From Haliotis cracherodii (Eukaryota): a stretch of 64,000 nucleotides of DNA. The stretch is taken from positions 1,255,856-1,319,855 of the forward strand of contig NW_027266286.1 in NCBI RefSeq assembly GCF_022045235.1, given 5' to 3'. The position numbers and the translations under genes are program-made. This document shows positions 1,021 through 36,174 of this stretch, one piece after another (position 1 is the first letter of the stretch; each line of letters opens with the position of its first letter). The notes beneath the pieces are model-generated. The model saw nothing but the letters and a program-made list of their open reading frames with translations, did no database searches and had not been told where the DNA came from.

Positions 1021-3624
1021 CTTGGTCGTGAACGGAACCCTTGCATCCAAAGTTGATAGGTAACCTCGCAGAACCATGGTAGAAAACAGTTTCCTTGACA
1101 CACAGTCAGCCTTAGGCTAAACCAACAATAGTCTTGGTAAGGCACCGCCCGCATCATCATAAAGTCTGCCACAAGATTCGTTTCTATTTCCATTTCCAAC
1201 AAAAAAATAATTAAAAAATTAGCATTCTAACACTGAAAAACAAGCCGATACAATATTGCACACTGTTACTTCCCTTTACATGCGTATCTCGTGTTATGGT
1301 CAAGGAGTTTGTATCCTTGTCTATGTAGGGAGGCCCTTTCCCAGGTTGATGGTACACAACTGTTTATTTGGTTTCATGCTAGTTAGAACAAGCAAAAAAA
1401 ACACACAAAAAACACCCACCCATCCGCCTGCCCGCACTATATTTTCAAAAGTCATTGATCGAGAACCAAGTGTTTTATTATTGTAAGCCTTAAATGTCAT
1501 TGTTTCACAAAAGTTCCTGGTTCCAGACAGCATTTGCTTGGCATCATCTGAGTGATATGAAAAGATAGGTTGAGTGTTGTTTAGTCACCTCAGCTTGGGA
1601 CTGCTCCTTGGTTAAATGCCTCACATGTTGCAATGCTAATGTTTTGTCCCATTTGGGGAACAAAACAAACAAAAGGAAAAGGAAACAAACTAATATTGTA
1701 AATATGATCTTCAACCTTTCATTCATCAAAGTACAATCATTTAACTCTGACATACATGAAGAAACAAACTAGCAGTGGACCACTATACAACATAATATAC
1801 ATATGTGTATACCATACAATATCAATATTTATTACCCACGTGGTGAAGATACAGGTGGTAAGATACTAAATCCGTATGTCACACGTGTGTCGTACAAGGT
1901 TGACCTTGTTTTATTCGTTTTGATTGGATAACCGTGACCTCTGTCACACCGGGACTACTTTTTTCATTCATAAAAAATTGCGAGACATCATTCATTTTGC
2001 GATTACAAGGCAGAACTGAAGAAATTCATGAGAACGAGAGATATTTACAAACACTTTATTAAACCAAACAAGATAGTCACACGCATCAAATTGGTTTGCA
2101 TTCTATATAAGTTATGCATAGAGCTCCTACAGACATATAATCCAGCTAGATCTATAAATCGATTTACAATGTACGACTGCCGATCGAGCACGTCCCTTGA
2201 GCGTGACGCACCCGACCATTTTCGCAACTTTCAATTTGATTTAACGTAAAAGGATAAGCGTGGTGAAATGAAGTCTGTTTAAACTATCTGGACAGATATC
2301 TAGACTTACTTGGGATGATCCGGTTGTGCCATCGGTGTCCCTTTTGAAGCGTATTTTATGGCGCTGTTTCGGGAGGTGTTCATGAATGAACGAACACGAC
2401 AGCACGACCAGATCACTTAAAGTTCACAGTTCCAATACAAATCATTCTAAAACCACTTGGAAGTGCGCTTGACTTCTGATTTTGTGGTCCCAAACATCCC
2501 AAATGTGAACAGTAACATTCACTATCTCTAGCGTAAAACGCTGTGAGGGGATCGCGGTTGTCTTTTCTTATTGCGGTGGCGACCTTGCCCTTCAATCGTT
2601 CGAAGCTGTCACTGACATGCAAGCAGATTTGAGTTTGTTGATTTTCACGTCTTCAGTATAGGGTGGTACAGTTAACATGAATGTCTTTGGCGAACAGTCT
2701 GATTTCCCTCTTCCAAAATTGGACGGGCATGATATAAATTCAGCTGATAGATCAAGGAAACCGAACCATTTTGATTGCACAGACGGGACCCCGGCAGTGT
2801 GATGCGTGTGACTGTTGGTCCGACATTCAAAGCGCGGCGCTAATGTGACATTTCAATTTTTCTTATCGGTGTCCTGCGTACTAACAACATGGCGCTTGAA
2901 TTACCATAAGTTGAAGACTTTCTTCCAAAAGGATCTTGAGCGTCGGTGCTGGTTTGTTTGCAAACAGAACAGCAGGCGCATGTTGTTAATGCGTATGCAT
3001 AAACATGTCAACAATGCCCATATTTGGTCTTATATCAATATTCATGCGCAACCAGATTTTGCAACCGGTTTCAGTTTGGTCTGTCAATGAACGAAAGTTG
3101 TTATGTATTTACACTTAAATATATATTTAACGTGGGTAATAAATAAAATACTACACTCATTCTCGTTAGATACCATTTTTACGAAACTTGTGAACTTTCT
3201 ATGGTATCTGACCGATCGAATAGTATCGAACGAGAATGAGTGTAGTATTCTCTATGTCTCAATCACATCACATCATATCTTAAAACAGAAATGTCAAGAC
3301 TCACTCACTCACTCACTCACTCACATCGTCAATCTCATTACAATCAGATCCTTGTTCCAACTATCACTCCACAAATGTCTGAGGACTTCCTATTACGGAA
3401 GAATGACCTTTCCTCCAACAAATCAGAGAGTGACTCACCAGATCAGGAAAGTGAAAGTCGGAATGTGTTTTCAAATCATGCATCCTCAAAAATGTTAACA
3501 TGGCGTGTTCTGAACCACAGTTGCTGGCTGTACGACTGATTTTGTCAATTTCATCGCCTAACGCTCACCTCAATGAGATATATTTTGAAACGGAAGAGAC
3601 ATTCCATAGCCCATGAGAGTTAGT

Positions 3625-3775
3625 GAGTTTGTTTTACGCCGCTTTTAGAAATATTCCAGCAATTTCACGGCGGGGGACACCAGAAATGTGCTTCACACAC
3701 TGTACCCATGTCGGGAATCTGGGTCTCAGCGTGATGAGCGAACGCTTTAGCCACTCAGCTACCTGACTACCCCCA
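3625..3775 (-). mobile_element. SINE family A copy.
   Basis: Sequence identity to the other family A copies. Confidence 0.75.
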
Positions 3776-4993
3776 TAGGCCATGAGAAGTACTGCCATTC
3801 AATATTACCAATCTACTAGAGCTTCAAGAATTTTCCTCTATTCAGTTTTCAAATTTGGAATCAATATTTTTTCAAAGGGTTGCCTGGAATGGAAGTCACT
3901 AGTTTAAGCTCAAGAAGCTTTCTCATTGGCTAATGTCGACTTCCTGCTAACTATGTCATTGGTCGGTCAAAGTTCACGAAAGGTCGTTCTGCAGTGACCT
4001 GTAATGGGATATCCTCAGATCTATGTGTAGCGGTAGCACACTGAGATCTAGTTTTAATGAGACTGGGTGTGGTCAAGCCAGGGATCCTTATCAGCGAGAA
4101 TCTGGGACCCCTCTACACTGATCACAGACACTGACAAATAAATATAGCAGAGTAGCAACTGGTTTACTTGTGAATACATGGCTGCTGATCAAATAACATC
4201 TAACATCTCGTAACAGGGATGAATTCAGTGATTCTATATTGTGTACATAAACTAATCATTTTAATCTTATTTCAGGTTTTAGTGATCTGGCAGACGACGA
4301 CTTGTCTATATATAACTTGCAATCAGTTGTCAGTCCAGCTGCCTCTTGTTGTTATGTTTCCTGGACAGTTCTGTGTCACAGGGCTGGTTCCTTTAGGTTT
4401 GTGGTATTAAGTCTACTTGGATTGATCTATTTTTATATCAGTGTGTTTGCTGTCTTAACAATAGCAGCACACTGCCCTCCAGTTGTAGTTTTGGCCAACT
4501 GAGAGGATGCCTGGCCTGCCAGCGGTTGTAGTGTTACTGTCCAACATAACATCCCTTCTAGACCATAACACAGTGGCATCATATCTTCTCCAACACTTCC
4601 ATGTTCCCTTATTATTGTCCATCAGTATCGTCGTTCTTTCAACCGAATGTCCATTTGTTTTTTTCCCTACACAACTTATATTCAAGGCACTAACGTCATA
4701 ACTAATGACATTTCATAGATAACAAAACAGGCACAATGCTTTTATCGAATTATATTCCAAAGGAATAAAAGGGTTTCCATGACAACAACGCTGATAATGG
4801 TGTAAACGATATGCATAATAAAACCATATATGCTTGTGACCTTACAGTACTTCATCAACAACACACAAAACATGTGTAACAGAGTTACGGATGACAAAAT
4901 GAAATAATATATATTATGCAGCATATACCAAAACAAAGTACAGCAAAATTAACAAAACATCCATTTTGCTGTGTATCCCCGAACACCAATCTA

Positions 4994-5427
4994 ACACACC
5001 ATAGTCTTGGTACTATTGTTTATCTTCTCCACGGTGTTTACAAGTTCTGGGAACAGAAGATGGAACATCCTTCCCAGTGTCTTCGTCTTCTGACGTTCTC
5101 CCAGATCACCCAACATCTTCGCTGCCGCAGTCAGCCAATCATCTGCCAGTTCCAGTGATTGACAGACGAGGGGGTGTTTCTTATCCATTGCTTTGCAAAA
5201 CTGGATTCCTTGACTCAGTGATAGAAATATCTCAGACACGTCCATTCTCTGAGATATGGTTGCCAACTCGATTTTACTGGAAAGAATCTTGCCCAATTCC
5301 CTTTCGCCATCTTTGAGCAGACGGTCATCTGTCAGGGGGAATAACTCTGGGCAGAGAACCTCCAAGATGACAAGAATAGTTATCACTGTAGCAACAAGAT
5401 CTTGGATGTCTCCTGTGACACTTGTGC
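4994..5427 (-). CDS. PARP4: PARP4-like terminal coding exon (..TSVTGDIQDLVATVITILVILEVLCPELFPLTDDRLLKDGERELGKILSSKIELATISQRMDVSEIFLSLSQGIQFCKAMDKKHPLVCQSLELADDWLTAAAKMLGDLGERQKTKTLGRMFHLLFPELVNTVEKINNSTKTMVC). Stop TAG at 4991-4993.
   Basis: Acceptor aaaccttttgcag|GC completes the Gly codon from the previous exon. Aligns with human PARP4 C-terminus ..ECLLDLIATMLVLQFIRTRL..PWAFEAIKQASEWVRR..CPRLELGNDWDSATKQLLG. Confidence 0.85.
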
Positions 5428-7292: not shown

Positions 7293-7392
7293 CTAGAGAC
7301 CGAAGTCCAGCCTTCATCAACAGTTCCCTGTAGTCATGGCTACGGATGCACAAAGCTGTATCAAGGGCACTGCCGAATCGCCATGATCCATC
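7293..7392 (-). CDS. PARP4: PARP4-like penultimate exon (DGSWRFGSALDTALCIRSHDYRELLMKAGLRSL).
   Basis: Acceptor gtcttttgtcag|GAT, donor TAG|gtaacg (phase 1). Human has DGFWKLTPELGLILNLNTNGLHSFLKQKGIQSL. Confidence 0.8.
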
Positions 7393-7519: not shown

Positions 7520-7705
7520 CAGAGAGTGATTGTGTGAGTGAGTGAGTATGGTTTTATGCTGTTTTTAGCAATATTCCAGCAATATCACAGCAGGGGACAC
7601 CAGAACTGGGCTTCACACATTGTACCCATGTTGGGATTCAAACCTGGGTCTTCTGCGTGACGAGCGAACACTTTAGCCACTAGGCTACCCGATCGCCCCC
7701 CAAGG
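7520..7705 (-). mobile_element. SINE family A copy with (GAGT)n at its plus-strand start.
   Basis: Sequence identity to the other family A copies. Confidence 0.75.
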
Positions 7706-8110: not shown

Positions 8111-8270
8111 TCTGGTAGTCATGTACAGAATTTTGTTTGATACTTCTAGCGGCATTCCATTTGTATTTAACTCAGGTGAAGTTATTGTAACGAATGTGTC
8201 GTTGGTATTGATCAAAGCTTAATGGAGAAATAATACCCTGGATTAACGAGGATGCTTGACGCCCACTCAC

Positions 8271-8827
8271 CTGATTCTGTAGTCGGAGGATGATCTGGAT
8301 ATTGTCTTGAGGTATGGGGGCCATGTAGTGGGATGCAGCAGTGGTCACATGATCCCCGAGTTCAAGTCCTGGTGGTGCCGCCCCTCCCATCCCATCTCTG
8401 AACCCTGTGGTGCTGCCACACATCAGACTGCTAGACGGAGATTGGAAGCTGACTGACATCTTTCCTCCATGGGAATCATGAGTGATGCTACTGAGGCCTG
8501 TTGTCTCTTGAGCCACATCCATCAGCTGGTCAGCAAGGGATACTAGGGATGTCCTGTTGATCCCTTGTGACGGGGAAAACAGCTGAGACGCCATGTGTGC
8601 GAAGGGACTAGGTCCCTGGGATATTCCAGAGACCACAAATTCTGCAGAGTGTTTGTTTACTGTGCTAGTCACTCCAACCGCCACTGGTGGCTTGCATATA
8701 GTTCTCGGGAAACCTGGACTGACAGATGGGGCTCCACCTCCTCCTCCAAACAGTAATGGCATTCCATCAAAGACGGGATGAGACGGAGCTGGAACATCGG
8801 CCATAGGTATCTCATCTGGATGGGGCA

Positions 8828-8858
<31 letters not shown>

Positions 8859-10055
8859 CTGTTGCTGTGGCATTCCAAAACCCCTACTCTCATATGTTTG
8901 TGGCATTGCATTCTTTGTTCCAAACAGGGAACTACTTTTCTCAGGAGATGGATATGCAAATATTGGATGAATAGGTAAATCCTGGAATCCTGGGGGTTTC
9001 TGCTTGAAGCTGTCCGTGTGAGATGGCACTTGCACATTACAACCAAATCCAGATCCAAAGGAAGATTTTTCAGCATGTTTAGACGCATCTACTGCTCCGA
9101 ATGACAAACAAGTGGAAGCCATTGTTGAACCACCAAATCCAGATCCAAAGGAGGATTTTTCAGCATGTTTAGACGCATCTACTGCTCCGAATGAGAAACC
9201 TGTTGCAGCCGTTGTTGAACCACCAAATCCAGATCCAAAGGAAGATTTTTCAGCATGTTTAGACGCATCTACTGCTCCGAATGACAAACAAGTGGAAGCC
9301 ATTGTTGAACCACCAAATCCAGACCCAAAGGAGGATTTTTCAGCATGTTTAGACGCATCTACTGCTCCGAATGAGAAACAAGTGGAAGCCGTTGTTGAAC
9401 CACCAAATCCAGATCCAAAGGAGGATTTTTCAGCATGTTTAGACGCATCTACTGCGCCGAATGAGAAACCTGTTGCAGCCGTTGTTGAACCACCAAATCC
9501 AGACCCAAAGGAGGATTTTTCAGCATGTTTAGACGCATCTACTGCTCCAAATGAGAAACCTGTTGCAGCCGTTGTTGAACCACCAAATCCAGATCCAAAG
9601 GAGGATTTTTCAGCATGTTTAGACGCATCTACTGCTCCGAATGAGAAATTTGCTGGCTTTCCCACTAGACTGTCTGCCTGCATACTCTGCGAAGCAGGTA
9701 CCACCATGCCAGAGCTCCCAAATCCAGATCCACGTGTCACATGACTGACGTGTTGGAGTCCCGGCAGTACCACTCCCTCCTTCCTGTCTGGGGGCATGCC
9801 TGAACCACCAACTGTACATCCAAGTGAAAAGTTGATTGGGAAATCCAGTTCTGCTCCACTTGGACTCACGCTCCAACCATCATATGGAGTTCGAAGTAGT
9901 TGCTTCTCTGTCCTTTTGTGCGTCATACCAGCTTGTGTTTCTTCTGCTTCTTGTTCGAGAATGTAAGAACTGTCAATGTCCATCCCGAAGAGATCTTCCT
10001 CTGGCTGTTCTCCCAAGAAGCCAAATGACTTCACGTTTTCTCCCACACCTGTCAT
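8271..10055 (-). CDS. PARP4: Giant low-complexity exon of PARP4-like. Acidic FG motif GEQPEEDLFGMDIDS at the N-terminal end. About 7 repeats of a 40-aa unit (ANFSFGAVDASKHAEKSSFGSGFGGSTTAATGFS), encoded by a 120-bp DNA tandem repeat at about 9050-9660. Q13 run from a CTG-type microsatellite at 8830-8870. Gly/Pro-rich segment. Ends ..HYMAPIPQDNIQIILRLQNQ.
   Basis: Open frame of 595 codons on the minus strand, ending at a strong donor CAG|gtgagt (8265-8270). The tail IPQDNIQIILRLQNQ plus the next exon DGSWRF aligns with human PARP4 VPWTELLSLQTE-DGFWKL. The 5' boundary is unresolved: candidate acceptor acag|GT at 10049/10048, otherwise ATG at 10053-10055. The ORF-track ORF continues artefactually to 8172. 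Confidence 0.65.
9050..9660. repeat. 120-bp coding tandem repeat, about 5 units, inside the giant PARP4-like exon. Encodes the 40-aa FG repeat.
   Basis: Near-identical 120-mers. The plus-strand ORF 9112-9744 is its antisense artefact. Confidence 0.85.
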
Positions 10056-10057
10056 AA

Positions 10058-10500
10058 CATAGCCAGCAAGGTATTATTGGTCGGTGACGATTGTACATAG
10101 CCAGCAAGGTATTATTGGTCGGTGACGATTGTACATAGCCAGCAAGGTATTATTGGTCGGTGATGATTGTACACAGCCAGGAAGGTATTATTGGTCGGTG
10201 ATGATTGTACATAGCCAGCAAGGTATTATTGGTCGGTGATGATTGTACATAGCCAGCAAGGTATTATTGGTCGGTGACGATTGTACATAGCCAGCAAGGT
10301 ATTATTGGTCGGTGATGATTGTACATAGCCAGCAAGGTATTATTGGTCGGAGACGATTGTACATAGCCAGCAAGGTATTATTGGTCGGTGACGATTGTAC
10401 ATAGCCAGCAAGGTATTATTGGTCGGTGACGATTGTACATAGCCAGCAAGGTATTATTGGTTGGTGATGATTATACATAGCCAGCAAGGTATTATTGGTC
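10058..10500. repeat. 39-bp minisatellite, about 11 units (catagccagcaaggtattattggtcggtgacgattgta), immediately upstream of the giant exon.
   Basis: Direct periodicity. Confidence 0.9.
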
Positions 10501-10739
10501 GGTAACAATTGTCCAAACTATTTGTGAAGTGGAATGTCCCGAAGTCACGAGGGCAATCGCGATGACAAATTAAATTTTAAAGTTGAAAGGGATACAGTGA
10601 TTATCTAGATACATCTACTTGTGTCAACAGTTTAAATAAAATGAAAAAAAATAGGATTATCAACACATTTAACCATATATAACTATATATTGTATGCACT
10701 TTACCAGTTTATTTACACGTCTGGCAAATGTACTGTACA

Positions 10740-10900
10740 TTGAGTGAATGAGTGAGTATGGTTTTACGTCACTTTTCGCAATATTCCAGCAATAACACGG
10801 CGGGGGACACCAGAAATGGGCATCACACATTGTCGGAAATCGAACCCGTGTTTTTGGGTGGTGAGTGAACGCTTTATCCACTAGGCTATCCGACCACCCC
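10740..10900 (-). mobile_element. SINE family A copy.
   Basis: Sequence identity to the other family A copies. Confidence 0.75.
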
Positions 10901-12297: not shown

Positions 12298-12802
12298 CTG
12301 CCGAGTATCGACTTCTGTCTCTGTCTCTACTTTTTGATCTTGATCTTCTGTCCCTTGCATCTTCAACACTTCCAGTTGGAGGAGGCATTGTCCTGGAGGA
12401 GTCCGGAGGTGGGGGTGGAGGAATGGCAGCACTCATGTTGGCGCTCCTGGCAGCTGCCAAGGGAACTGAAGAACCACCCCTGATCAATCCACCAATTTTG
12501 GCCCCCAATAACAATGATCTAGTTTTGGTCAAAGCGTCATGTTCTATGGGAGGTGGAGGTGGTGGAATATGACTTCTGGAAGGGGGAGGCGATGGAGGGG
12601 GGGGGTACATGACTTCTAGCAGGTGTAGGGGGAGGGGGAGGCACAGACACCCCAGAAGGGGGTGCTTGTGCTGCTCCAGGGGGTGGCGGGGCCCACCTGC
12701 TATGTCTGGAAGTGGGGGGTGGTGGGGGTGGGGGCACAGCACTTCCAGTAGTTTTGGGAAGCTTTTTTGACAGCTCATTTTTTGCAAGGAATAGTTTTTC
12801 AC
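12298..12802 (-). CDS. Coding-like ORF, frame B, overlapping frame A by 266 nt. Pro-rich, then an RS/RD-rich tail (..EDARDRRSRSKSRDRDRSRYSAG). Ends at a strong donor CAG|gtaagat (12292-12297).
   Basis: Strong GTAAGA donor immediately after an open frame. Frame A and frame B overlap across G/C homopolymer runs, so either a small intron or a homopolymer indel connects them. Confidence 0.35.
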
Positions 12803-13465
12803 TCAATTCAAGCTGGGGGACACTACCCATCCGAGGATCAGGGCGTGTGTCAAATCTCCCACAAAGAAGCTGGGTTGAATATTGAGGCTGGTCAATAACC
12901 TTCTTCAGCTGTGTGCCACCACCTATTTGATTAAGCAGGGAAGCCCGACTAAAACTTCTCGTAGCTTGCATTTTTGAGCATTGGAACAGCTCCCCTACCG
13001 CAGGGAGTGGTGGTGGGGGTGGGGGTGGTGGCATTCTTCCTAATGCCGCTTTTCTGGGCATGGCCTCCTGTCTGACAGACTGCAGTGGCGGCGCAGCTCT
13101 GAAGAATGAATAGATGAATGAACATCCACCCCTACCTCTACCTCTATCCCCACCCCTACCTCTATCCCCAACCCCACCCCTACCTCTACCCCTACTCCCA
13201 CCCCCATCCCCACCTCCACCGTCATCAAACAATCCAAACCCCATATCTTCATCGTCTGACTCCTCTGACTCATCCAACTCGTCATCAAGGCAGCTGGCTG
13301 CCACGCTATCACCCAGGTTGGCTTGTACTGATTCTATGGCTGACGCAATGTCTAAGTCCCCAGTCTTAACCAACATGTCACGCATTCTACGTGGTTCCAA
13401 TTCTTCCAAATTCTCCTCAAAGGGTTCTTCTGGCAACAATTTGCCTGATAGCATATTGGTGGCAT
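12537..13465 (-). CDS. Coding-like exon or ORF, frame A. Encodes an acidic segment (..ASCLDDELDESEESDDEDMGFGLFDD), an RGG/Gly-Arg repeat, poly-Pro, a WH2-like motif (RSFSRASLLNQIGGGTQLKKV), and further poly-Pro runs.
   Basis: Excellent acceptor ttttttgttttag|AT at 13466-13467. Open frame to a stop at 12537. Same strand and inside the PARP4-like span. Could be a lineage-specific disordered PARP4 exon or a nested Pro-rich WH2-type gene. The composition partly follows C/G-rich low-complexity DNA, so the ORF may be over-extended. Confidence 0.4.
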
Positions 13466-19134: not shown

Positions 19135-19320
19135 TAGTTCTCAGCTAAAATATGTTTACAGAGTATTGACCTGATATATACTTACAGAGTTCTGGCCTGA
19201 TGTATATTTACAGAGTATTGACCTTTTATATACTTACAGAGTATTGACCTGATATATATTTTCAGGGTATTGACCTTATATATATTTATAGAGTATTGAC
19301 CTGATTATATATACCGTAAG
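19135..19320. repeat. 30-bp minisatellite, about 6 units (gagtattgacctgatatatacttaca).
   Basis: Direct periodicity. Confidence 0.8.
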
Positions 19321-19559
19321 TTCCTGGTACATCTAAGGAAAGCTACTCTGCACGGTGAATTGTTGTGCCTTAGACAACTGGGCCAACTGGGCCCCCTACA
19401 ATAGTTAGAAGTGTGAAACAACCTGAAACGGTGTGACATGCTTGGTGGTTCCTCATCAAAAGAATCGTCGTCACATAACTCCAAGTCAAAGTCCAAATCC
19501 TCATCGCTGTTTCCCAGTCCAAAGTAGCCCCCTGACTCCTCCACAATGTCCATCTGCAC

Positions 19560-20880
19560 ATCTGTTCACACAAGATATCTCAGTCAACATCTACACATGG
19601 ATATCTCAGTCAACATCTACACATGGATATCTCAGTCAACATCTACACATGGATACTGCCTACATCCACACAGGGATATTGCCTACATCTACACATGGAT
19701 ATTGCCTACATCTACACATGGATATTGACCTACATCTACACATGGATATTGACCTACATCTACACATGGGTATTGCCTACATCTACACATGGATACTGAC
19801 CTACATCTACACATGGATATTGACCTACATCTACACATAGATACTGACCTACATCTACACAGATACTGACCTACATCTACACATGGATATTGACCTACAT
19901 CTACACATGGATATTGACCCACGTCTACACATGGATATTGACCTACATCTACAAGATATTGACCTACATCTACACATGGATATTGACCTACGTCTACACA
20001 TGGATATTGACCTACATCTACACATAGACCTTGACTTTTATCTACACATGGATATTATCCTACAGTGTTAAAGGGGATCTGTGCTTCTCACTGTCAACAT
20101 CTACATATGGATATTATCCTACAGTGTTAAAGGGGGTCTGTGCTTCTCACTATCAACATCTACATATGGATATTATCCTACAGTGTTAAAGGGGGTCTGT
20201 GCTTCTCACTGTCAACATCTACATATGGATATAATCCTACAGTGTTAAAGGGGATCTGTGCTCCTCACTGTCAACATCTACATATGGATATTATCCTACA
20301 GTGTTAAAGGGGATCTGTGGTTCTCACTGTCAACATCTACATATGGATATTATCCTATAGTGTTAAAGGGGGTCTGTGCTTCTCACTGTCAACACCTACA
20401 TATGGATATTATCCTAGTGTTAAAGGAGATCTGTGCTTCTCACTGTCAACATCTACACATGGATATTATCCTACAGTGTTAAAGGAGATCTGTGCTTCTC
20501 ACTGTCAACATCTACACATAGACCTTGACTTTTATCTACATATGGATATTATCCTACAGTGTTAAAGGGGATCTGTGCTTCTCACTGTCAACATCTACAT
20601 ATGGATATTATCCTACAGTGTTAAAGGAGATCTGTGCTTCTCACTGTCAACATCTACACATGGATATTATCCTACAGTGTTAAAGGGGATCTGTGCTTCT
20701 CACTGTCAACATCTACACATGGATATTATCCTACAGTGTAAAAGGGGGTCTGTGCTTCTCACTGTCAACATCTACACATGGATATTATCCTACAGTGTTA
20801 AAGGGGGTCTGTGCTTCTCACTGTCAACATCTACATATGGATATTATCCTACAGTGTTAAAGGGGGTCTGTGCCCTAATT
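19560..20880. repeat. Compound satellite: a 24-bp unit (atctacacatggatattgacctac), about 20 copies at 19560-20040, then a 59-bp unit (..atggatattatcctacagtgttaaaggggatctgtgcttctcactgtcaacatctac), about 14 copies.
   Basis: Direct periodicity. The plus and minus ORFs at 19433-20886 are repeat artefacts. Confidence 0.9.
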
Positions 20881-23793: not shown

Positions 23794-24417
23794 CTGGCAA
23801 ATGACACAAAGGTTACCTCAGTCAAAACTTTACTTGTTCCAAGTTAAATTGACTGTCCAAGTCCACCAATATCAGACCCCAGAACGGTAACAAAATTGTC
23901 CCACACCCCTCTTAAGAGAAACAAAAATGGGACGATCTAGACAGACATTACGCCAATGTCAAACATGGCCACAGAATCTGCAGCAATTCTGCCAAGCTCT
24001 TCCAGCAGATTGAACAGCGATTCCACAAGATGTCAATTACAAGCTTCTTGGTTCCATGGGCAAGATGTGTCGAACTGTATGGCTGACTAAAAACTACTTT
24101 GTCTCAAACAAAGCTCCATAGTTCACCCATAATAGTAAACGGTTGGCCCCTGGATCCACTGAGGCCATAATTGTAACATTTAGATAACTGTGTGAGTGAA
24201 TGAAGTTTTTACTAGGTCTCCAGTGAGCACATGGTCTATACAGGAAGTTAGATGGGAGTAGGCTCCCTTAGATACTAGTAATACATGCACTGTCTAACAA
24301 CTGTGCCCAACACATTTAATTACCTATGAATTTCTACTGAAGTTATGCCAATTACAATTCTATAAGTACCTGAAACTACATTGCTTACTACTTATTTAAT
24401 TCAAAGAAAATACTCAC

Positions 24418-24519
24418 CTCATCTCTGGTTTCTATGGCAACAAAGCTGGTGAACTGAGTAACGATGGAGTACTGCTTGCTCAGGTCAATCACATAATTCT
24501 TCAGATTCTGTTTCAAAAT
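24418..24519 (-). CDS. PARP4: PARP4-like exon 25 (ILKQNLKNYVIDLSKQYSIVTQFTSFVAIETRDE).
   Basis: Acceptor tgttgtag|ATT, donor GAG|gtgagt. Human has MKKQTLKSLIIKLSKENSLITQFTSFVAVEKRDE. Confidence 0.9.
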
Positions 24520-25120
24520 CTACAACATATAATATTTGTCTTTGCTCAAGTTTGGGAAGAATTTCCGCACAAATTAGACAGGCGAAAGCAGCGGCCATAA
24601 AGCAGCAGCTGGATGTTGATCTTGTAAAACATTCTCTGATTGGACTATCAATATGTGCAAAAGTCCTATCCCAAGGGAGTCTGTTCTAGCACAGAAAAGT
24701 CGGCTTGAATGGGAGAGGGTGAAAAATAGACCTTGATAAAGGCGAGTGAACACTCTTGCCTTGAGAAGATGAAAGACATGTACACCTACAACAAAAGAGC
24801 TCTCCAGTGTATTTTCTTGTGTTATTAACAAGTCTTCTTAATGTTTCCAAAGTAAAACCATAATGTTCCTTAAAAAATGCAGTTTGACTTTTTGTGAAAT
24901 GTTAAATATCAAGAGGATCGTCCATAAATTTCCCTCAAAACAACTCTAATAGCATCATCTATTGTGCCTCATGTTTCTTTCCATATTCACAAAGAAATCA
25001 GTGAGAAAAATTAAACTGGTTTGGCTTTACAATGATTTGAGATGGGCTCAAAATATTAAACTAATTAGTTAATTTTTTCAGTTTTGCTGAAATGTAGTGA
25101 CAGTGCATCTTAAGACCGAC

Positions 25121-25201
25121 CTCGTGCTGGGTGCGATCTGCTGACAGCACTCCATCCTCCCAGTCCCGTATCAGGGCTCGCGCCGTGAGGCGGTGAACGA
25201 T
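25121..25201 (-). CDS. PARP4: PARP4-like exon 24 (IVHRLTARALIRDWEDGVLSADRTQHE).
   Basis: Acceptor cttgattacag|ATC, donor GAG|gtcggt. Human has MIHKLAARALIRDYEDGILHENETSHE. Confidence 0.85.
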
Positions 25202-25598
25202 CTGTAATCAAGACATAGAATGGTCAGATGATACCAGGTAAAGATGTTTTTCATTGTCGGGATACCAACAACACGTTGCATTAAGATTCTGGATCACTGG
25301 TCCAAAAAAGGGAGGCATCTCTGCACAAAAAAAGTTGCTTCTAAAGACTTTTATTTTATTTGATTGTGACATATGATAAATGATAATAATAAACAATACA
25401 ATAGTAACAGAAAAAGTAACTGTGCTTCATATAAAGTAGTGTAAATGTTATGTTATTAAAAATAACAACATAGCATTTGGTCATTAGTCTGATCAATGTT
25501 TTATAATAACAACTTCATTGACAAAGCACATTCTTAATGTCAGTTCTTAAATGAACAATTAAATTGTTTATCCAAATATCCCACAAGGAATAACATAC

Positions 25599-25682
25599 AT
25601 TGGGCCCTGTGGTCTCGATGGTCATTGCTTGCAATGGAACAAGCTGATTCAATTCAGAATGTTGTACAAATTGCAGCACCAT
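25599..25682 (-). CDS. PARP4: PARP4-like exon 23 (MVLQFVQHSELNQLVPLQAMTIETTGPN).
   Basis: Donor AAT|gtatgt is strong. The acceptor ..cgccag|ATG is weak, with a purine-rich upstream. Placement is by position and phase between exons 22 and 24; similarity to human LCALIQEKEFRTMVSTTELQKTTGTM is loose. Confidence 0.5.
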
Positions 25683-26827
25683 CTGGCGTTGGTTATTGTC
25701 AACATTGTCTTTAGCATCCTTTCGTGAGTTTTTTCTTTCATGTGGCTTCTATTTGATTTGTATTTTGACCTTTATTAGTAACATTTAATTTCTTTTTTCG
25801 TAAAATTTTAGTATTACTACAAACTTTTCATCTTTATTAAAACTGATGTATTGTTTTACCAAATGACCACCAATGAAAACCCATATCTGGTAACTCAAAT
25901 AACAACGTCATTATTGGGTGTGACCACAATTTGTCTTGATACAGGTGATGCATTGAAGACACCAGCTGGTTCTGGTCCTGTTGTAGGGGTCGTTCTATCT
26001 CATCCCAGGCATGTTCCATTGGGGAGAGGTTTGGAGAAACAGCCAAAATTGCAGTACAGCAATGTTATGCTGCCTCAAAAAGAGTCTGTTACAACACGTG
26101 CACTGCGTGGGTGGGCATTATCCAGCTGCAATGCGACGTAAGTCCCTGCATTTGCACAAAGGGTTTGTGATGGCACCCCATACCATCACACTATCACCCC
26201 AAAACTAATGATGTTGACTAAAGCAACTGTTGCTAAAATTTTCCCCTGGGCGCCTGTAGACCTTTGCACGACCATCACCATGTCCAGATAAAACTCATCT
26301 GTGACCAGAATACTGTCTCAGTCTTTACTTCTGAAAATCAGATTTTGTCTACACCAAGCTAGGCGTGGCTGACGGTGATGTGGAGGCCAAACTGGGCATA
26401 TCGGTGGGCATCAGGGCCGGATGTTGTGCTCCCTCAGCCGGAGCTAAGTATCAATCCCTAACCCTAACGAGAAATTGTCCTGGCTTTTAATGTGGCAGTT
26501 TGGTGTCAATTCTGGACAATCAAATATGGTTGTCTTGTTGACATGACGTCAAATGTGGATAACCGGCTCGTTGCAAGGCATGAGTTTTGCCCTGTTGGAG
26601 ATAATGTCTCCAAAAAGATGATATTGTGTTTTGATGAATATCAAAATGTCTGGCAACTTTGTTTTCGCTATTCGTGTTTGCAGCAAACCCACGGCATGTA
26701 AACATTGATTTTCAGCATGCCTTGACATTGTGCAAGCATAATTTACATTATTTACAGGTAAACAAAGCATTTCATGAGAACCTGACAGCTAAACAATCAT
26801 TGTGATCTGTTCACTTAACAAACAACA

Positions 26828-27620
26828 TGTGTGAGTATCAAGCCCCTATCTCACATACACGATTTAAGAAATTGCGAACACGATTTAAGAAAAGTTGAAA
26901 AATCGTGTTGATTCGTGCTCGAACTTCTTAATTTCTTAACCAAACAAGACCCTCATACGACCAAAAACAACCCTCCGATGACCCTAATACGACCTTTATA
27001 CGAGTGAACACGACACCCATACGACCGTCATAAGATATTCATACAAAACAACACGATTTAACTTCATTTAACACGACCCCAATACGACTGCCATACAACC
27101 AAACACAAATGACATACGATGCCCCTATGACTTAATAAGAATCAACACGACCGCCATACGATTAAACCCGAATCATTACGATTTCCATTCGACTACAAAA
27201 ATAAACATGATCTCCATACGACTGAGCAAGACCTTCATACGACATATTTTTGTTTATTTTGGTCACGTGGGACATGTAGTATATAAGCTGCATTACAACA
27301 GCATTCCTGTGTCAGTCTTCACTGGCGATTTTGGTGGTGGTTCAGAGGTTTCAGCTGGCTCATCTTGTCCCATGGTTGGTTGTGAAGGATGTTTCCCTTT
27401 CGAAGATTTTGCTTGAAGGAGCTTCCGTTTCGGCCGCCTGAGGTTTGGCATGGCTGTAGAATGAGCTTTCACTTTCAGGGGGTTTCCCACGTTCTCACTC
27501 AGTCACACGAATGAACACGCATGAGTGCACGACCTTCATACGTTCTAACACGATTTAAGGAAAAACGTTAAATCGTGTTCATTCGTGTTCAGATTCATGA
27601 ATGTGAGATAGGGGCTTCAA
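26828..27620. mobile_element. MITE-like non-autonomous DNA transposon, about 790 bp. Terminal inverted repeats caagcccctatctcacat (26829-26846) and atgtgagataggggcttg (27601-27618). Subterminal cacgatttaag repeats. Degenerate internal catacgac repeats.
   Basis: Perfect 18-bp TIRs found by reverse-complement comparison, with subterminal direct repeats at both ends. No coding capacity beyond short ORFs. Confidence 0.65.
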
Positions 27621-29859
27621 GCTCCCACAAAACACGCAAACATCCAAATTGTGCACCATTCTTTAACATGCAAATGGTGAATTATGACCTCAAAGTCGAG
27701 GAGATGTCTTCATGAATATGTATTGAAACATGCATTATTTAATTTTCAAACAAATTTTTAGTCAAATTTATATTGAAGCACAGTTACTTTTTGCCGTCAG
27801 TATATATATGATATTGATACATTCATTTACATTCAATGTTTAAATAATGAACACATGTCTGTCTGACAGTTTGTTAATTACAACACAGTCTGAACTTCAT
27901 GTTTATGGCTCTCAATCAAATTGCATTAATATCTCTTACCAATCCAGTTGTGATGCTGAGGTCAGAGGTCGACACGACCGTGGACACTTCTTGTCCTCCA
28001 ACAACAGCTTTCAAGGTCGCCTACATTGAAACAGTCACAATCATATTGGATGTTCATTTGCTTGTTGTTAGCAAAGCACTCGGAAATATTCTAGCAACAA
28101 TAGAAGAAGAAGATTCATCATCATTCTATAGACAATAACGTACGAGTGACAACGTATGACAGATTATCTGTCCCGAGTGAAATGAATGTTGTTAGTCCCG
28201 AGCCTTGGCAAACTTTCAACATTAATTTTACAAGGGACAGATAATCCATCATTCCTCGTCACGAGTAGTTTATTGTTTTTATTACCCATCATCAAGTCCT
28301 AAATAAGAAGCTAAAAAGACAAGAAACATTTTACTCTTAAGACAGAGGCGAGGTCGTATTTCATATTCCTATGCATGTAAAACAGCATCAATCTCATGGA
28401 ATTTTACCTGATCACATACAGTCTTTGCTCAACATTAAAATTCAGCATATGCGAAATATTTCATTTGAGCAGCAATAATTCAGCAATATAATGAATTTTG
28501 TTGATAAACATACATTTTGATTCCTGTATAATAGTACAACAATGAATTAAAAATGACTTGTCATTATTGTTGATACAAAACTCAAACACATGTTGACATG
28601 TTCTATCAGTCGCCTCAACGTCACAAGCTCTCACGATACGAAAACAAAAACAAAACTTTTACCGGTCTTCGCTTTCTCAACAACAAGCTGTGTAAACTGA
28701 TTTTCCATCAGGCAATGTTTATTTGACAGACTTAAAAGTGAGCATACGTCTTACTTTTTGAAACAACAGTCAATGTCTTTGTCTTTCGATCTTTCGCCAA
28801 ATTCATAGAATTTGTTTCATACTGTGACTACGATATTGTTTCACAATAAGGTATCCCGATATTGTTTTTACTCTTCCTGGAATGTCTTGCATTTAGTTTT
28901 AATGAGGGATGTGTCGACTCTAAAACAGTTCAATGGCGATATTTTGTTCCACAATTCTACCAAACAAATTTCCGTCAATCTTCAAAAGATCATTCACTTT
29001 TATAGGGGATTGGAATGTTGACGTTGTTTACCTGCAGGATAGCAGATGATTTAGTCAATCAAATTTACAGTAATTAGTTTGTATGTGTGAGCCATAGAGG
29101 CGTTACGATTCACTCACGTATTCGGTGAATCCAACCGTATGCATTCATGAATTCAATTCGTTATTCGTGGCAACTTGAATTGATTATTTATGAATATGCA
29201 ATCATGTGCATTTACATTCCCTGTACCTAAAAATATCCATAAGAACAAATGATATGCATAGATTTCTTGAAAGACAACACTCTTATCATTTTTAATTTGA
29301 CAGGAATGTGGTCAATGGTCATTGTCGGTTTTGAGCAGATACTAGTACCTGATAAGTGCAGTATATAAATGTATAGTATTTTAATAATTAACCAACCATG
29401 TCAAATAATTTATGTTGCTATTGTTTCACTGAATATAACAAATAATACATCAACTGCTGACTTGTTATTGTATTCGCGAATTAATATTCGTATTTGTTAC
29501 TCTATATTAGTGATACGAATCATATTCGCCTCATAGTGTATTCATTGCAGCCCACATTTTATTTGGATTAATAAAAAATATACTTTTAGAACACCTTATG
29601 CTGAAGACTATAACTGACAAATCTCATGTGGCAGAATCTTGTTTGTGGAAAAAGATGGATGAACATGGTGAATGGGAAAAAGTAGTTCCGGCAAACACCA
29701 TTAACCAATGAAGTTACAGGAAAACAGCCAATCAGCATTAAGCCACTCCGGGGCAGTGGTGACTTAGCATAACACCACATATCACGTGACGGGACTTTTC
29801 TCTTGTTTATAAACAAACACGCTTTTTCAGAAATCAGAATACAATGGACTAATGCAAGT

Positions 29860-30350
29860 ATTTGGGGGACAGTGGCCGCATGGATCTCTGGGTAGGACAG
29901 TGGTCACATGGATCTCTGGGTAGGACAGTGGCCGCATGGATCTCTGGGTAGGACAGTGGCCGCATGGATCTCTGGGTAGGACAGTGGCCACATGGAGCTC
30001 TGGGTAGGACAGTGGCCGCATGGATCTCTGGGTAGGACAGTGGTCACATGGAACTCTGGGTAGGACAGTGGTCACATGGAACTCTGGGTAGGACAGTGGC
30101 CGCATGGAACTCTGGGTAGGACAGTGGTCACATGGATCTCTGGGTAGGACAGTGGCCACATGGAACTCTGGGTAGGACAGTGGCCGCATGGAGCTCTGGG
30201 TAGGACAGTGGCCGCATGGAACTCTGGGTAGGACAGTGGCCGCATGGAGCTCTGGGTAGGACAGTGGCCGCATGGAACTCTGGGTAGGACAGTGGCTGCA
30301 TGGATCTCTGGGTAGGACAGTGGCCGCATGGAACTCTGGGTAGGACAGTG
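29860..30350. repeat. 30-bp minisatellite, about 16 units (gtaggacagtggccgcatggatctctgg), ending about 75 bp from PARP4-like exon 22.
   Basis: Direct periodicity. ORFs at 29827-30415 are artefacts. Confidence 0.9.
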
Positions 30351-30423
30351 GGAGGTGACAGGAGAACTGTGCAGCTCCCTTCCCCTATGGGTATATAACA
30401 TAGTAACACACACATCTACCTAC

Positions 30424-30594
30424 CATGGTGCAGTTCGGCACCAGTCCATACACAACTTGACGTGAGCCGTTGAACAGAGCTGTGATCTGCCGTGGTGCTT
30501 GTGGCAATGTTGCTGCATCGTTGTCAAACTGTTGCCACTCAACTGCCACGGAGGTCAGCCCCGGTTGGGAGGCCTTACTGATCTGAGACTTCAC
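30424..30594 (-). CDS. PARP4: PARP4-like exon 22 (VKSQISKASQPGLTSVAVEWQQFDNDAATLPQAPRQITALFNGSRQVVYGLVPNCTM).
   Basis: Acceptor cccctgaacag|GTG, donor ATG|gtaggt. Human has IEDQMTRLCSPSCHSVSVKWQQLNPDVPEALQAPAQVPSLFLNDRLLVYGFIPHCTQ. Confidence 0.85.
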
Positions 30595-32159
30595 CTGTTC
30601 AGGGGAGGCTTCAGTTTATTCTTTCAGAAAAATAATGTTTTCTACATTTTTTGCTTTCACATTTATTAAATACACAAATAGGGTGAACATTAAATGAAAA
30701 TATTGTTTGAGATAATGTACTGTTTTAGTCACCTCTAACTAAACGGGAGCCACTGAGGTGGATGGCTGAGAATATAATCACTGATAAATTCTGCCTGGAC
30801 AAACAGGATGTTGTCATCACAGGTTGTATATACAGTCAAGTCTTGTTAATCCGACACTCGTTAATCAGACAATCAGCTTTATCCGACACTAATGATGGGA
30901 ACTGATTAAATCAGAGCTATTTAGACCTGCTAATCCGACAGTCTTGCAACATTAGCCACAAAGAAGCAGCTTTCTTGAGCTTTGCGGTACCAATTTCAAA
31001 TTGGCGACTTCCATTCCAGACTTTGCTTTTTAAAGTATTTTGAATCAGTCCTACAGTCCATAACAGTTTTGTGTTAAGCTTCAGAGGTTGCATGATCAGA
31101 AAACATACTCTGCTCGCAATGTAATATAACAATATGCATATTTCATTTTTTTATTACGTTTTTGTTTCATTATCTATTGTGTAGTTGTCTGATTATCAAC
31201 CACGAACATTGATACTACTTAATTTTGTTTATCTGACATACTCGTTAATCCAACATAATCATATGCAACCAACCATGTCGGATTAACGGGACTTGACTGT
31301 ATGTTATTTTCTCTCGTATTTCTGTAAGTATGCTATGTTTCTAAACAGGTCGTTCTGTTTCGTTTCTGTGTGAAAACAGTTCGCACACACACTGCTTAAC
31401 TTCGCGGATACATATCTAAAAGCATGAAAAAAGCATGAATATGCGCCACGTGTCGACCACACTGTGTCGTTGTAATTTCAGTTTTGCTTGAGAGATAGGA
31501 TAGGCAACATCTTTCACCACTCTTGTCATTTTGTAATCGCTATTGTAATAGAAATTTGGGAATTAAGAAAAGTTTGTAAATGTGAATTAGAGTACCATAG
31601 TAATTGTCGTTGGTAATTGTTGCTTTAAACCAAAATAAAACTTGTGTAAATGATTTAGAGTTCTTTGCCTGCCTATTGCGCTGGTACTGTTTCTGCTGAC
31701 CACTGCCACTGATGCATGACCATCAATGGCCCATCGTCATGTGCACAGTGCACAGGTCACAAATCAGGTGAAGCTAGGCAATGTCGGTCGTGGAGAGTCC
31801 TTGGATGGGTGACCACGTGTCGGCTCCTGCCAGTTTCTCGGGCTTTGGTCCTGTCCCCCACTGAAGTACAAGTAACAAATGTGGCGTCTCCTTGGGCAAG
31901 TGACTTTGTTCGAAATGTGACTCTGTTCACCCAGCAGGGAATGGATACCATGTAGGATGAGATGGCAATGTGGGTGTTAACTTTCTAGCGCCTAACAGAC
32001 AGGTTGGGTTGTATACTCCCCAGGGAGCTGAGAATGATTCTTGAGTGCACACTGATCCAGTGACCAGGGTAATAATGGCACTTTGAACATGCCCCTGAGT
32101 GGTGTGGAAATATGGGCAAATATGAATAGTCTATTATTATTATTATGATTAAGGCCTAC

Positions 32160-32259
32160 CTTCCTCTCCCACTTGGACTTGGCTTTCCGGTCAAAGAACT
32201 CGAAGGCTCCTCCTCCAACTCTTGCAATGGCTCGCAGGAGGTGCATGTTGGCAGTGGAA
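32160..32259 (-). CDS. PARP4: PARP4-like exon 21, VWA end (STANMHLLRAIARVGGGAFEFFDRKAKSKWERK).
   Basis: Acceptor tgtttctgtag|T completes Ser codon, donor AAG|gtaggc. Human has STANRHVLRILSQCGAGVFEYFNAKSKHSWRKQ. Confidence 0.85.
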
Positions 32260-32964
32260 CTACAGAAACATAGGGAATAGTACAGGTTTTCTTTGTTTAC
32301 TTGTTGTTTTACGCCGCATTCAGCAATATTCCAGTTATATGACAGCGGTCTGTAATTAATCGAGTCTGGACCAGACAATCCAGTGATTGACATCATGAGC
32401 ATCGATCCACGAAATTGGGATACCAATGACCTGCATCAACCAAGATAGTGAGCCTGGCCACCCGATCCCAATAGTGGCCTCTTATGACAAGCATAGTTGC
32501 CTTTTACAGCAAGAATGGTTGCTGGGGACGTATTCTACCTCGGTTCCCTGACTAAATGATCCAATCTCAGAGATACAAGAAAAACCAGCAACCCTACGGA
32601 CAAAGATTGTTCGTGACATGTGTACAGCAACAAGTCCCAAGTAACTGTCGTATCTCCTCAGGGATAAAATGTAGCATTTTTTCATGATTCCATCCCCCCA
32701 CCCCTAAAAAAAGACCAGTCCTTAAATAATAGAACAAAATGGAACTGTGTCATTTTTTCATTGCCACCCCCACCCACACTCCAAATAGTTGTGATAATTA
32801 ATTTTTGGAGACCCCCATTTTGTGTCATTTTTTCCTCACCCCTTCTATCCTCCCTGCCCCACCACACCCCACCCCACCCTACCCCACCCCACCCCACCCC
32901 ACCCTATAATAAATTACCAGTCCCTTATTACGGATGAAGTAACTGCAGTTCTCTGTCTCTGTAC

Positions 32965-33152
32965 CTGACACCGAAGGTGAAGACTCGAGTGTGAGCAGCA
33001 TTGTTGAGGATGGCGTTGAGCACACTGTCCTCGTTGTTGATGTGTCCATCGCTGATGATGAAGATGTTGCGGATTGCCGAGGTGGAAGCGAGGAGGTGGT
33101 AGGAGTGGAGGGGTCTAAACACCTCTGTGTTGCCCATGTCTGCAAAGGCCGT
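32965..33152 (-). CDS. PARP4: PARP4-like exon 20, VWA core (TAFADMGNTEVFRPLHSYHLLASTSAIRNIFIISDGHINNEDSVLNAILNNAAHTRVFTFGV).
   Basis: Acceptor ttgttgtctag|ACG, donor TCAG|gtacag (phase 2). Human has TMGNTDFWKTLRYLSLLYPARGSRNILLVSDGHLQDESLTLQLVKRSRPHTRLFACGIG. Confidence 0.85.
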
Positions 33153-33943
33153 CTAGACAACAATGGTGGATGTAAGTCAAACTAAACATGTCAAGCGAAT
33201 CCTCACCCCAGTGAATGGAGGACTAACTGAACCCTAAGTGTTATTCAACCACAGAGCTTGATCATTGAAATTGGCCACAAAATATCACATGCCCTGCCAT
33301 TTCCAAGATGGATCTGTGTGCTCCCCCACTCGGAAAAAAAATCCTTCTGTTTTTAAATCCACTTACTTGACCCATAAATATTCAAGTCAATACCAAGTTC
33401 TGCAAACAAATTTCTCGATCTATCCTTCCCACAAATCCTTCCATTCAATGTTATATGTGAGGTTTATTATATTAAGTTTATAACAATTGATCGAACTGTA
33501 CATGATTGAAGTTCCTCCCCTGATGGCAAAACATCTATGGCCAGTCAAATATTAATAGTAGACATTGATGCCCATCTCGACTATCCAAAGTTTGTGTGGA
33601 CCAACAAATTCTGATAGTGAACATACCTGGTCCTAATTTATGTAGTACATTTTTGACCCGGCTCAAACCCAGGTACTTTTCTACTTCCCCAGACTACTGA
33701 AACTACAAACATAGGGACTCATATGCCTTTACAATAAAGCTAAGCACAGGTGCATTACGGGAAGACAAAGGTAACATCTTGTTTTCCAGAAACAACGGTA
33801 GTTCCATTATTGCAATAAATACCTCACATTAGTGTTTATAATTGACAGAAGTAAAAATTCCCTCCGTTGTCTCCCATTGTAAGTATCCAAGAGCTGTCAT
33901 CCCAAATAGCGCCAAGGTTGCCTGGCAACCAGACTCAACCTAC

Positions 33944-34017
33944 CTTAAGGAACTTCTCCACAGCCTGGATGCTGGTCTTTGTGTTTGGCTGGCTGGTTGG
34001 GAAGAGTTCCTGGTGGC
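33944..34017 (-). CDS. PARP4: PARP4-like exon 19, VWA (GHQELFPTSQPNTKTSIQAVEKFLK).
   Basis: Acceptor ttgtcgtgcag|GC continues phase (G+GC=Gly), donor AAG|gtaggt. Human has GYKELFSYPKHITSNTMAAEFIMSA. Confidence 0.75.
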
Positions 34018-36167: not shown

Positions 36168-36174
36168 CTAGAAC

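Follow-up and report, generated by a model that had tools for sequence, protein, structure and literature searches.

A predicted giant low-complexity exon with an in-frame FG minisatellite in a PARP4-like gene of Haliotis cracherodii

Introduction

Exon 30 of vertebrate PARP4, the vault PARP, is the closest described counterpart of the sequence analyzed here, a predicted coding exon on the minus strand (8271–10048) of a 64,000-nucleotide stretch of the gastropod Haliotis cracherodii (NCBI RefSeq assembly GCF_022045235.1, contig NW_027266286.1, positions 1,255,856 to 1,319,855 of the forward strand; hereafter, the window). The human exon encodes residues 1223–1582, is the largest of the gene, is predicted to be almost wholly disordered, and is present in all isoforms (Daugherty 2014, PMC4038475). 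Its sequence and length are highly variable among vertebrates, and recurrent positive selection in the gene is confined to it (PMC4038475). The MVP-interaction domain (MINT) spans human residues 1562–1724 and contacts MVP through S1614, K1618, and R1689 (PMC12280208). Cryo-electron microscopy of the human protein has also described long disordered regions that bridge the folded domains of PARP4 in the vault lumen.

The snail exon resembles its vertebrate counterpart in belonging to the same gene family, in lying directly 5' of MINT, and in a 3' boundary that is identical to the residue (human E1582 and D1583; snail Q and D). In both cases it is the largest exon of the gene, of low complexity, without a recognizable domain, and variable in sequence and length between species. 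It differs in size (592 codons versus 360 in human) and in that only its last ~15 residues are similar to human exon 30. Furthermore, it carries a minisatellite encoding phenylalanine-glycine (FG) motifs and a polyglutamine tract, neither of which is mentioned for vertebrate exon 30 in the cited papers, with which we compared it by description. Another difference is that one or more additional giant low-complexity exons seem to lie upstream in the gastropod gene.

Two other known systems bear on the FG repeats. In-frame variable number tandem repeats (VNTRs), or coding minisatellites, occur in mucins and other low-complexity proteins. Like them, the snail repeat consists of head-to-tail, near-identical units with a length that is a multiple of three and an open frame, includes higher-order duplications, and differs in copy number and unit size in a related species. 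In contrast to neutral VNTR turnover, its core is kept across synonymous divergences (dS) of ~0.3–0.9. The FxFG domains of nucleoporins such as Nsp1, Nup153, and Nup358/RanBP2 are alike in having many tandem copies of FSFG split by short, charged spacers rich in Ser, Thr, and Ala, and two nucleoporin-like proteins are among the significant database matches to the snail array. However, the FG density of the array is higher (3 per 30 amino acids, aa), and its flanks are those of a PARP4, without a nuclear pore complex (NPC), Ran-binding, or zinc-finger domain.

The reading that we favor, with a probability of about 0.72, is that the exon is the counterpart of PARP4 exon 30, that its FG core has been amplified in frame, and that it would act as a flexible tether. 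An earlier note, made from the letters of the window alone, had described a giant disordered exon with an FG expansion unfamiliar from vertebrate PARP4, overlooking human exon 30, already described as the largest, disordered, and fastest-evolving exon of the gene (PMC4038475). Given this counterpart, a giant disordered PARP4 exon is already known, and the FG array is the new part. A full-text literature search for PARP4 or vaults together with FG repeats found nothing relevant.

Results

The exon lies in a minus-strand frame (8175–10073) of 633 codons without a stop. The number of such open reading frames (ORFs) expected by chance in the window is ~3e-12 at its base composition and ~1e-7 when the repeated units are counted once. 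Both ends have strong splice sites (Table 1) whose phases join the upstream and downstream exons in frame. For example, the phase-1 acceptor (with wider flanks, ..GTTATGACAG/GTGTGGGAG, where the slash marks the junction) agrees with the donor at 12297/12298, where the upstream exon ends in phase 1. The open frame of the 595-codon exon claimed in the earlier note therefore stands, with the difference that the exon most likely starts at 10048, after the acceptor AG, and not with the ATG at 10055.

The orthologous exon was recovered from Haliotis rubra. We used the non-repetitive parts of the exon and MINT as the query and matched one protein, XP_046570896.1 (“uncharacterized protein LOC124279140”; 317 aa, 61% identity), whose genomic locus (QXJH01000247.1) we refer to as L001. 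The window and L001 are similar in DNA only at the predicted exons and at one short interspersed element, and the introns are unalignable. The acceptor context in L001 (TTTCTACAG/GTGTGGAAGAGG) matches that of the window (in common, ACAG/GTGTGG(A/G)AGA), its donor (CATCAG/GTGAGTGGGAG) is as in the window, and the downstream junctions are also kept, with XP_046570896.1 reading LQLQHQ/DGSWRF and LRSLG/TTV across them. A homologous segment with both junctions is thus present in a related species; its absence from related species was one of the two outcomes that the earlier note had named as refuting. The exon proteins of the two species align end to end at 46% identity and share several conserved blocks: EEDL(F/L)GMD near the start, GSGFGSS.V.PASQ..QAD, the FG core, CNVQ.P.HTD....PGFQD right after the array, an FGM followed by polyglutamine, GGKM..SFQS.SSSL, and the start of MINT. 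Because the ORF is beyond chance, the junctions and their phases are conserved, and the DNA alignment with H. rubra is restricted to exons, we regard 8271–10048 as a predicted coding exon that looks constitutive.

The 3' end of the exon ties it to human PARP4. When the exon tail was spliced to the next two exons, a phmmer search matched human PARP4 residues 1576–1705 (E = 7.7e-6; PDB entries 9bw6, 9bw7, and 11jf), and a two-species profile extended the match to 1568–1705 (E = 3e-6). The junction IILRLQNQ/DGSW aligns with human LLSLQTE/DGFW, which places the boundary at human E1582 and D1583, and the ..CQSLELADDW.. of the last exon aligns with human ..CPRLELGNDW.. S1614, K1618, and R1689 serve as anchors for the numbering of this alignment, in which they take the positions given for them in PMC12280208. 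The tail alignment proposed earlier (..LLSLQTE before DGFWK) is supported by these scores. The N-terminal alignment proposed with it is not, as phmmer searches with the whole exon and with its first 70 residues found no match at E ≤ 10 in a PDB set that includes full-length human PARP4. Beyond the last ~15 residues, the exon has no similarity to human PARP4 detectable in that set at the same threshold. As the snail exon ends opposite human E1582 and D1583 opens the next exon, we consider it, from alignment, the positional orthologue of human exon 30. The H. rubra orthologue has a precomputed match to the PARP4_MVP-ID family (PF26156), a family that the Pfam copy scanned here did not report. 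A metagenome scan with the alignment of the tail and MINT found no relative.

The remainder of the gene is consistent with this assignment. Exons for BRCT, PARP catalytic, VIT, VWA, and MINT domains follow each other in canonical order on one strand (Table 1). The BRCT exon scores 23.1 bits in Pfam (cut-off, 21.3), the joined catalytic exons 86 bits (PF00644; E 3.1e-24), VIT 130.6 bits, and VWA_3 51.3 bits. The motifs LFHAS, GLYFAS, and DEYAVY in the catalytic region may be read as an H-Y-E triad. A query of the joined domain exons matched PARP4 proteins, best in Lottia gigantea (46%) and a PARP4-like protein of the oyster Saccostrea cucullata (72% over VIT), with corals and many vertebrates next. 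Furthermore, tblastn with the oyster protein (P0074) mapped a run of exons from 41153 down to 24400, with identities of 83% in the main VIT exon and 45–85% in the other mapped VIT and VWA exons. The domain order, the PARP4 homologues, and the match of the exon tail and two following exons to human PARP4 together indicate that the gene is a molluscan PARP4 orthologue by homology, and that the exon sits between the VWA region and the predicted vault-docking domain. This bears out the earlier proposal of a PARP4-like host with a large low-complexity exon. A word-index protein search with the whole exon returned no match, its candidates being swamped by low-complexity words (proteins up to ~1,090 aa were listed).

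The FG array within the exon consists, in register, of six full units and one partial unit of 22 aa, encoding FSFG, SFG, and GFG motifs. The unit reads [F/L]SFGAVDASKHAEKSSFGSGFGGST[T/M]A[A/S]T[G/C] and contains three FG each. An in-frame FG/SFG array had been noticed before, with a unit of 120 bp (40 aa); the period found by Tandem Repeats Finder is instead 90 bp (30 aa), in 6.7 copies. Seven of the ten variable columns among the units are third codon positions. Units 3 and 5 are 1 nt apart, and units 4 and 6 have private substitutions in common. The latest event in the array thus looks like a 180-bp duplication, since units 3–4 and 5–6 share private substitutions. The exon as a whole, whose composition is dominated by S, G, A, F, P, T, and Q, has 27 FG dipeptides in 592 aa, 21 of them in the 202-aa array; five of the 27 are in FSFG. 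Even with the arrays left aside, FG occurs more often than in shuffles of matched composition (P ~0.01 in each of the two species). The glutamine tract that follows GFGMP has the predicted 13 residues, encoded by a mixture of CAG and CAA and not by the pure (CTG)n run, on the opposite strand, that had been claimed for it; the corresponding region of H. rubra contains three Q runs, all shorter, of which two immediately follow an FGM. A plus-strand ORF over the array (9112–9744) was set aside as a mirror artefact, being confined to the repeat and having neither continuation nor homology.

Tandem repeats make up ~25% of the window, in 17 arrays of at least 200 bp with periods of 16–119 bp. In a genome so prone to minisatellites, an array whose period is a multiple of three is to be expected in an exon as a by-product, and it is the conservation of the core that stands out. 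One of the arrays spans 3.3 kb (52510–55841), and several yield long spurious ORFs in every frame. Another, the intronic 38-bp repeat of 12 copies, stops 7 bp short of the splice acceptor of the exon, and its amplification spared the final acceptor.

H. rubra has a coding array in the same place, with a 135-bp (45-aa) unit in 4.6 copies at 94% identity. Its unit, FS[F/L]GAVDMSKHAEK[S/P]SFGS[G/R]FGSSVLPASQTIQADRQVATPSST., includes a 23-residue spacer (SSVLPASQTIQADRQVATPSST.) that is repeated in H. rubra and is present in the window as a single copy just before unit 1 (GSSGMVVPASQSMQADSLVGKPAN). The spacer repeated in the window has eight residues (GSTTAATG). Common to both species is a core of 22 aa, FSFGAVD(A/M)SKHAEKSSFGSGFG (FSFGAVDxSKHAEKSSFGSGFG), and both arrays terminate at ..SFGSGFG/CNVQ.. 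(the slash marking the array end). The same core, different unit lengths, and shared array end suggest that the 22-aa core was amplified with different unit boundaries in each lineage, or that an old array was remodelled and then homogenized. The core was amplified in frame, through unequal exchange or replication slippage. The difference in array length seen here is one between species, from one assembly of H. cracherodii, and length polymorphism within the species, which the earlier note predicted, is plausible.

Selection differs along this part of the gene. The core consensus is identical between the species at 21 of 22 residues and differs at 6 of 66 nt, four of them synonymous third positions and two in one codon (A to M). 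Over these 22 codons, nonsynonymous divergence (dN) is 0.04 and dS 0.32 (dN/dS about 0.13). The corresponding values are 0.17 and 0.67 (0.26) for the two MINT exons (7293–7392 and 4991–5427) and 0.49 and 0.88 (about 0.55) for the whole exon, in which the divergence of one C-terminal block precludes an estimate of dS. The FG core therefore appears to be the best-conserved part of the exon and to be under purifying selection.

In composition, the exon stands apart from the gene's folded domains. G, S, P, Q, T, A, and N account for 57% of its residues (34–38% in the folded domains) and I, L, V, and M for 15% (24–32%), and its sequence entropy is lower. Domain searches of the exon with Pfam and HMMER gave no domain matches, and its evolution between the two species is indel-rich. 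Both its composition and this mode of evolution suggest that the exon is likely to be largely disordered. One candidate relic of a folded domain was discarded: exon residues 450–505 (8532–8699, minus strand) matched the C-terminal strands of the TRIM67 SPRY domain (PDB 7qs5, E 3.6e-4), probably by chance, with no Pfam match at E ≤ 10 and poor conservation in H. rubra.

Table 1. Features of the window that belong to the PARP4-like gene and its surroundings. A slash in a nucleotide sequence marks a splice junction.
Feature	Position	Strand	Details
Large predicted coding exon of PARP4-like gene	8271–10048	minus	1778 nt, 592 full codons plus split first codon; putative positional counterpart of human PARP4 exon 30
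Splice acceptor AG, phase 1	10049–10050	minus	read as ..TTATGACAG/GTGTGG
Splice donor GT, CAG/GTGAGT, phase 0	8269–8270	minus	last exon base 8271; consensus ..AATCAG/GTGAGT
In-frame coding minisatellite	9042–9648	minus	Tandem Repeats Finder: period 90 bp (30 aa), 6.7 copies, 94% matches, no indels
Q13 tract, preceded by GFGMP	8830–8868	minus	mixed CAG and CAA codons
Last 16 exon codons (PIPQDNIQIILRLQNQ), start of MINT/MVP-interaction domain	8271–8318	minus	two-gastropod profile aligns from here to human PARP4 1568–1705
Next exon, DGSWRFGSALDTALCIRSHDYRELLMKAGLRSL plus split G, MINT, phase 0 to phase 1	7293–7392	minus	splice sites read; 83% DNA identity to L001 10676–10806; aligns with human 1583–1616
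Last coding exon, rest of MINT	4991–5427	minus	stop TAG 4991–4993; acceptor TTTTGCAG/GC, phase 1; 76% DNA identity to L001 13862–14483
Intronic 38-bp minisatellite, 12 copies, abutting acceptor	10057–10512		unit related to a sequence that H. rubra has as a single copy, immediately 5' of its acceptor: ..TAATACCCTGGCGGCTATGT..
Upstream large low-complexity exon, probably same gene	12298–13465	minus	ESEESDDEDMGFGLFDD, WH2-like RASLLNQIGGGTQLKKV, poly-Pro; orthologous ORF L001 3976–5202; similar segment in oyster P0074
Upstream PARP4 domain exons	24400–51438	minus	BRCT 51142–51438; PARP regulatory 47014–47331; PARP catalytic about 42713–45009; VIT 39741–41153; VWA and following region 24400–36221

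The low-complexity exon next upstream contains, in ESEESDDEDMGFGLFDD, a near-exact internal copy of the C-terminal tail of the ribosomal stalk proteins P0, P1, and P2. All 24 PDB matches to this stretch (24/24) are C-termini of P proteins, and some of the P1 and P2 matches span 60–70 residues. The motif is kept in H. rubra (ESEDEDMGFGLFDDD) and is recognizable in the oyster PARP4-like model (EEDVDMAFALFDDDD). The P-stalk tail recruits translation GTPases, which makes a copy inside a PARP odd. The same exon has a WH2-like motif (~12900–12960; RASLLQQIGNGKQLKKV in H. rubra, L001 ~4400–5100) that Pfam scores below threshold (WH2, E 0.0078), with weak matches to N-WASP and CAP1, followed by long poly-Pro tracts (~12300–12800), an arrangement typical of actin regulators. 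The frame of this exon shifts at ~12582–12604, within the C-rich poly-Pro tract, and the homology to H. rubra goes on in another frame; its length (1168 nt) is incompatible with phase 1 at both ends. Misassembly, a short intron, or a genuine frameshift could explain the shift. The oyster protein (partial) joins the VIT-VWA region to an acidic and poly-Pro region and also has synaptobrevin-like (PF00957) and actin-like (PF00022) stretches; it may be a chimeric prediction. An open segment farther upstream in the window (19308–19565, minus strand) encodes a strongly acidic peptide (..SDEDLDFDLELCDDDSFDEEPP..) and could be a further linker exon.

Other features lie outside the coding exons. ORFs of 169 aa (57292–57801, minus strand) and 156 aa (63375–63845, plus strand) are located outside the PARP4-like gene. 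Copies of a short interspersed element common with H. rubra (85–88% identity) are found at 10742–10804, 7535–7594, and 3624–3674 of the window and at 1659–1721 of L001. In the H. rubra annotation, one of two RefSeq genes covering the end of the locus apparently begins in an ORF of an intronic minisatellite. We rejected a reading of the 736-aa H. rubra Gnomon product as two exons joined via an acceptor at 8573, as the implied donor is not GT.

Discussion

The similarity of the array to nucleoporins could mean that it works as a genuine FxFG module of the nucleoporin type, either binding karyopherins or NTF2-like domains or forming a cohesive FG phase, and that it would tie a vault PARP to nuclear transport or make a selective phase in the vault lumen. 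When the whole exon was searched exhaustively with HMMER against 1.84 billion protein representatives, only four matches had E ≤ 1e-3, all to the array, and two of them are nucleoporin-like: the top one (P0121, E 6.7e-9), a Saprolegnia protein with RanBP2-type zinc fingers and FxFG repeats, and the fourth (P0124, E 1.8e-5), a eukaryotic protein with three RanBD1 domains, two zinc fingers, and ~25 copies of GSGFSFGASDASKDTTQ. Also consistent with such a module are the FSFG motifs separated by the charged spacer KHAEK, the FG count of the array, and a purifying-selected core that is multicopy in two lineages. However, the second match (P0122, E 2.4e-8) is a bacterial FimV-like protein with SGFGFG repeats, which indicates that repeats of this kind arise in unrelated contexts; the third (P0123, E 1.4e-5) reads as an immunoglobulin-like sequence and was taken as spurious. 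FG motifs do exceed shuffles in the translated exon, for which the earlier note had suggested FG-motif prediction, but the score for Pfam Nucleoporin_FG (20.5–20.8 bits) is under the gathering score of 32.2, some FSFG have decayed to FSLG in H. rubra, and neither NPC-anchoring nor Ran-binding domains were found in the protein, whose flanking exons encode PARP4 domains only. Capture of the array from a nucleoporin gene was also considered and rejected. The RanBD/FSFG gene L002 has no DNA similarity to the array and uses another class of serine codons (AGT versus TCA), and the nucleoporin likeness is therefore better explained by convergence than by inheritance, as far as codons and DNA can tell. 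On this evidence, we regard a genuine FxFG module as unlikely.

The array may, alternatively, be a folded repeat domain whose 30-aa units stack into a beta-solenoid-like structure. Single-sequence AlphaFold2 does model it as stacked beta, with strands in every unit (E132–140/E147–150 and so on) at a predicted local distance difference test (pLDDT) of 51–84, and gives pLDDT < 50 nearly everywhere outside the array. Near-identical repeats given as a single sequence often produce baseless stacks in AlphaFold2, and this model was built from just such an input. Furthermore, the H. rubra unit has 45 aa, a 50% change in coil length that is hard to square with a conserved solenoid, and no repeat-fold family was matched, all of which makes a folded array very improbable. 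The low pLDDT of the rest is no evidence of disorder here, because it is low even for MINT, which is modelled as all-helical at low confidence. Rapid change in the exon also fits a diversifying surface for host-pathogen recognition, as proposed for mammalian exon 30, to which repeat turnover would add variation. The parts outside the core diverge more than MINT (46% versus 73% identity; dN/dS 0.5–0.7 versus 0.26), with one block saturated, and indels are frequent and the repeats independently remodelled. Yet no block has dN/dS > 1, in a single pairwise comparison whose high dS (0.6–0.9) leaves little power, and the repeat core is conserved rather than diversifying, so that we hold this explanation to be distinctly doubtful. 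Least credible of all is that the exon is a non-functional chance or decaying ORF, a retained intron, or an artefact of repeat assembly. A frame break in the H. rubra copy and a genome filled with minisatellites would favor it; the ORF probability of ~1e-7 or lower, the conserved splice sites and phases, the restriction of DNA conservation to exons, and dN/dS < 1 speak against it. In addition, skipping the exon would delete the first residues of the conserved MINT.

Several observations weigh against the tether reading of the exon-30 counterpart. In H. rubra, the frame of the exon is broken by an extra C in a CCCC run (L001 ~9890–9900) inside a 90/91-bp internal duplication, and RefSeq splits the PARP4 C-terminus there into two “uncharacterized” genes. 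Removal of the extra C restores a continuous exon of 620 codons; either misassembly or a genuine lesion could account for the break. The dN/dS of the core is drawn from 22 consensus codons only, and two of the four H. rubra units read FSLG for FSFG, with some FG lost. The charge-hydropathy index FoldIndex does not call the exon unfolded, although this index failed to tell the exon apart from the gene's folded domains and, for a sequence of low charge, is uninformative. The stacked-beta model discussed above counts on the same side. So do the contacts with MVP: S1614 is kept in the gastropods, and K1618 and R1689 align with Ser in both, H. rubra having an Arg one position earlier. Moreover, one paper has argued that the PARP4-binding residues of MVP are vertebrate-specific. 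With one of the three contact residues kept and their partners argued to be vertebrate-specific, vault docking of the snail PARP4 is something that we can only infer.

On the reading that we favor, the exon would encode a flexible and mostly unstructured tether that joins the docking domain to the enzymatic and VIT-VWA body of the protein. The tether would project from MINT, which would dock PARP4 to the inner wall of the vault. Most of it may be free to drift or be diversifying, and its length free to change, with a few short motifs held by selection, chiefly the multicopy FSFG/SFG/GFG core. This core could offer weak multivalent phenylalanine contacts, either to itself or to FG-binding partners, and the number of repeat copies would set the valency. 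A more elaborate version, in which the FG core on its MINT anchor forms a nucleoporin-like FG brush on vault PARP4, with a capacity to bind karyopherins or NTF2-like proteins or to condense into a cohesive FG phase, and, together with the exon of P-stalk, WH2, and poly-Pro motifs, turns the linker into a hub of short linear motifs, strikes us as rather speculative and improbable. If true, the hub could bring transport receptors, translation GTPases, and actin regulators as cargo to the PARP domain or the vault.

Studies of the hypervariable exon 30 of PARP4 have so far been confined to vertebrates. The snail locus indicates that the large linker exon and the position of its 3' intron are at least as old as the common ancestor of molluscs and vertebrates, and that a recognizable MINT domain is present in a mollusc. 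If the repeat is merely tolerated, the locus would still be a clear case of a minisatellite within coding sequence, in a genome rich in such repeats. Within a fast-changing linker, however, one short FG-rich peptide appears to have been selected and kept in multiple copies by independent amplification. Vaults have been discussed in connection with nucleocytoplasmic transport, which makes FG-binding transport factors the first candidate partners. The 22-aa motif may thus provide a concrete handle on what the PARP4 linker binds.

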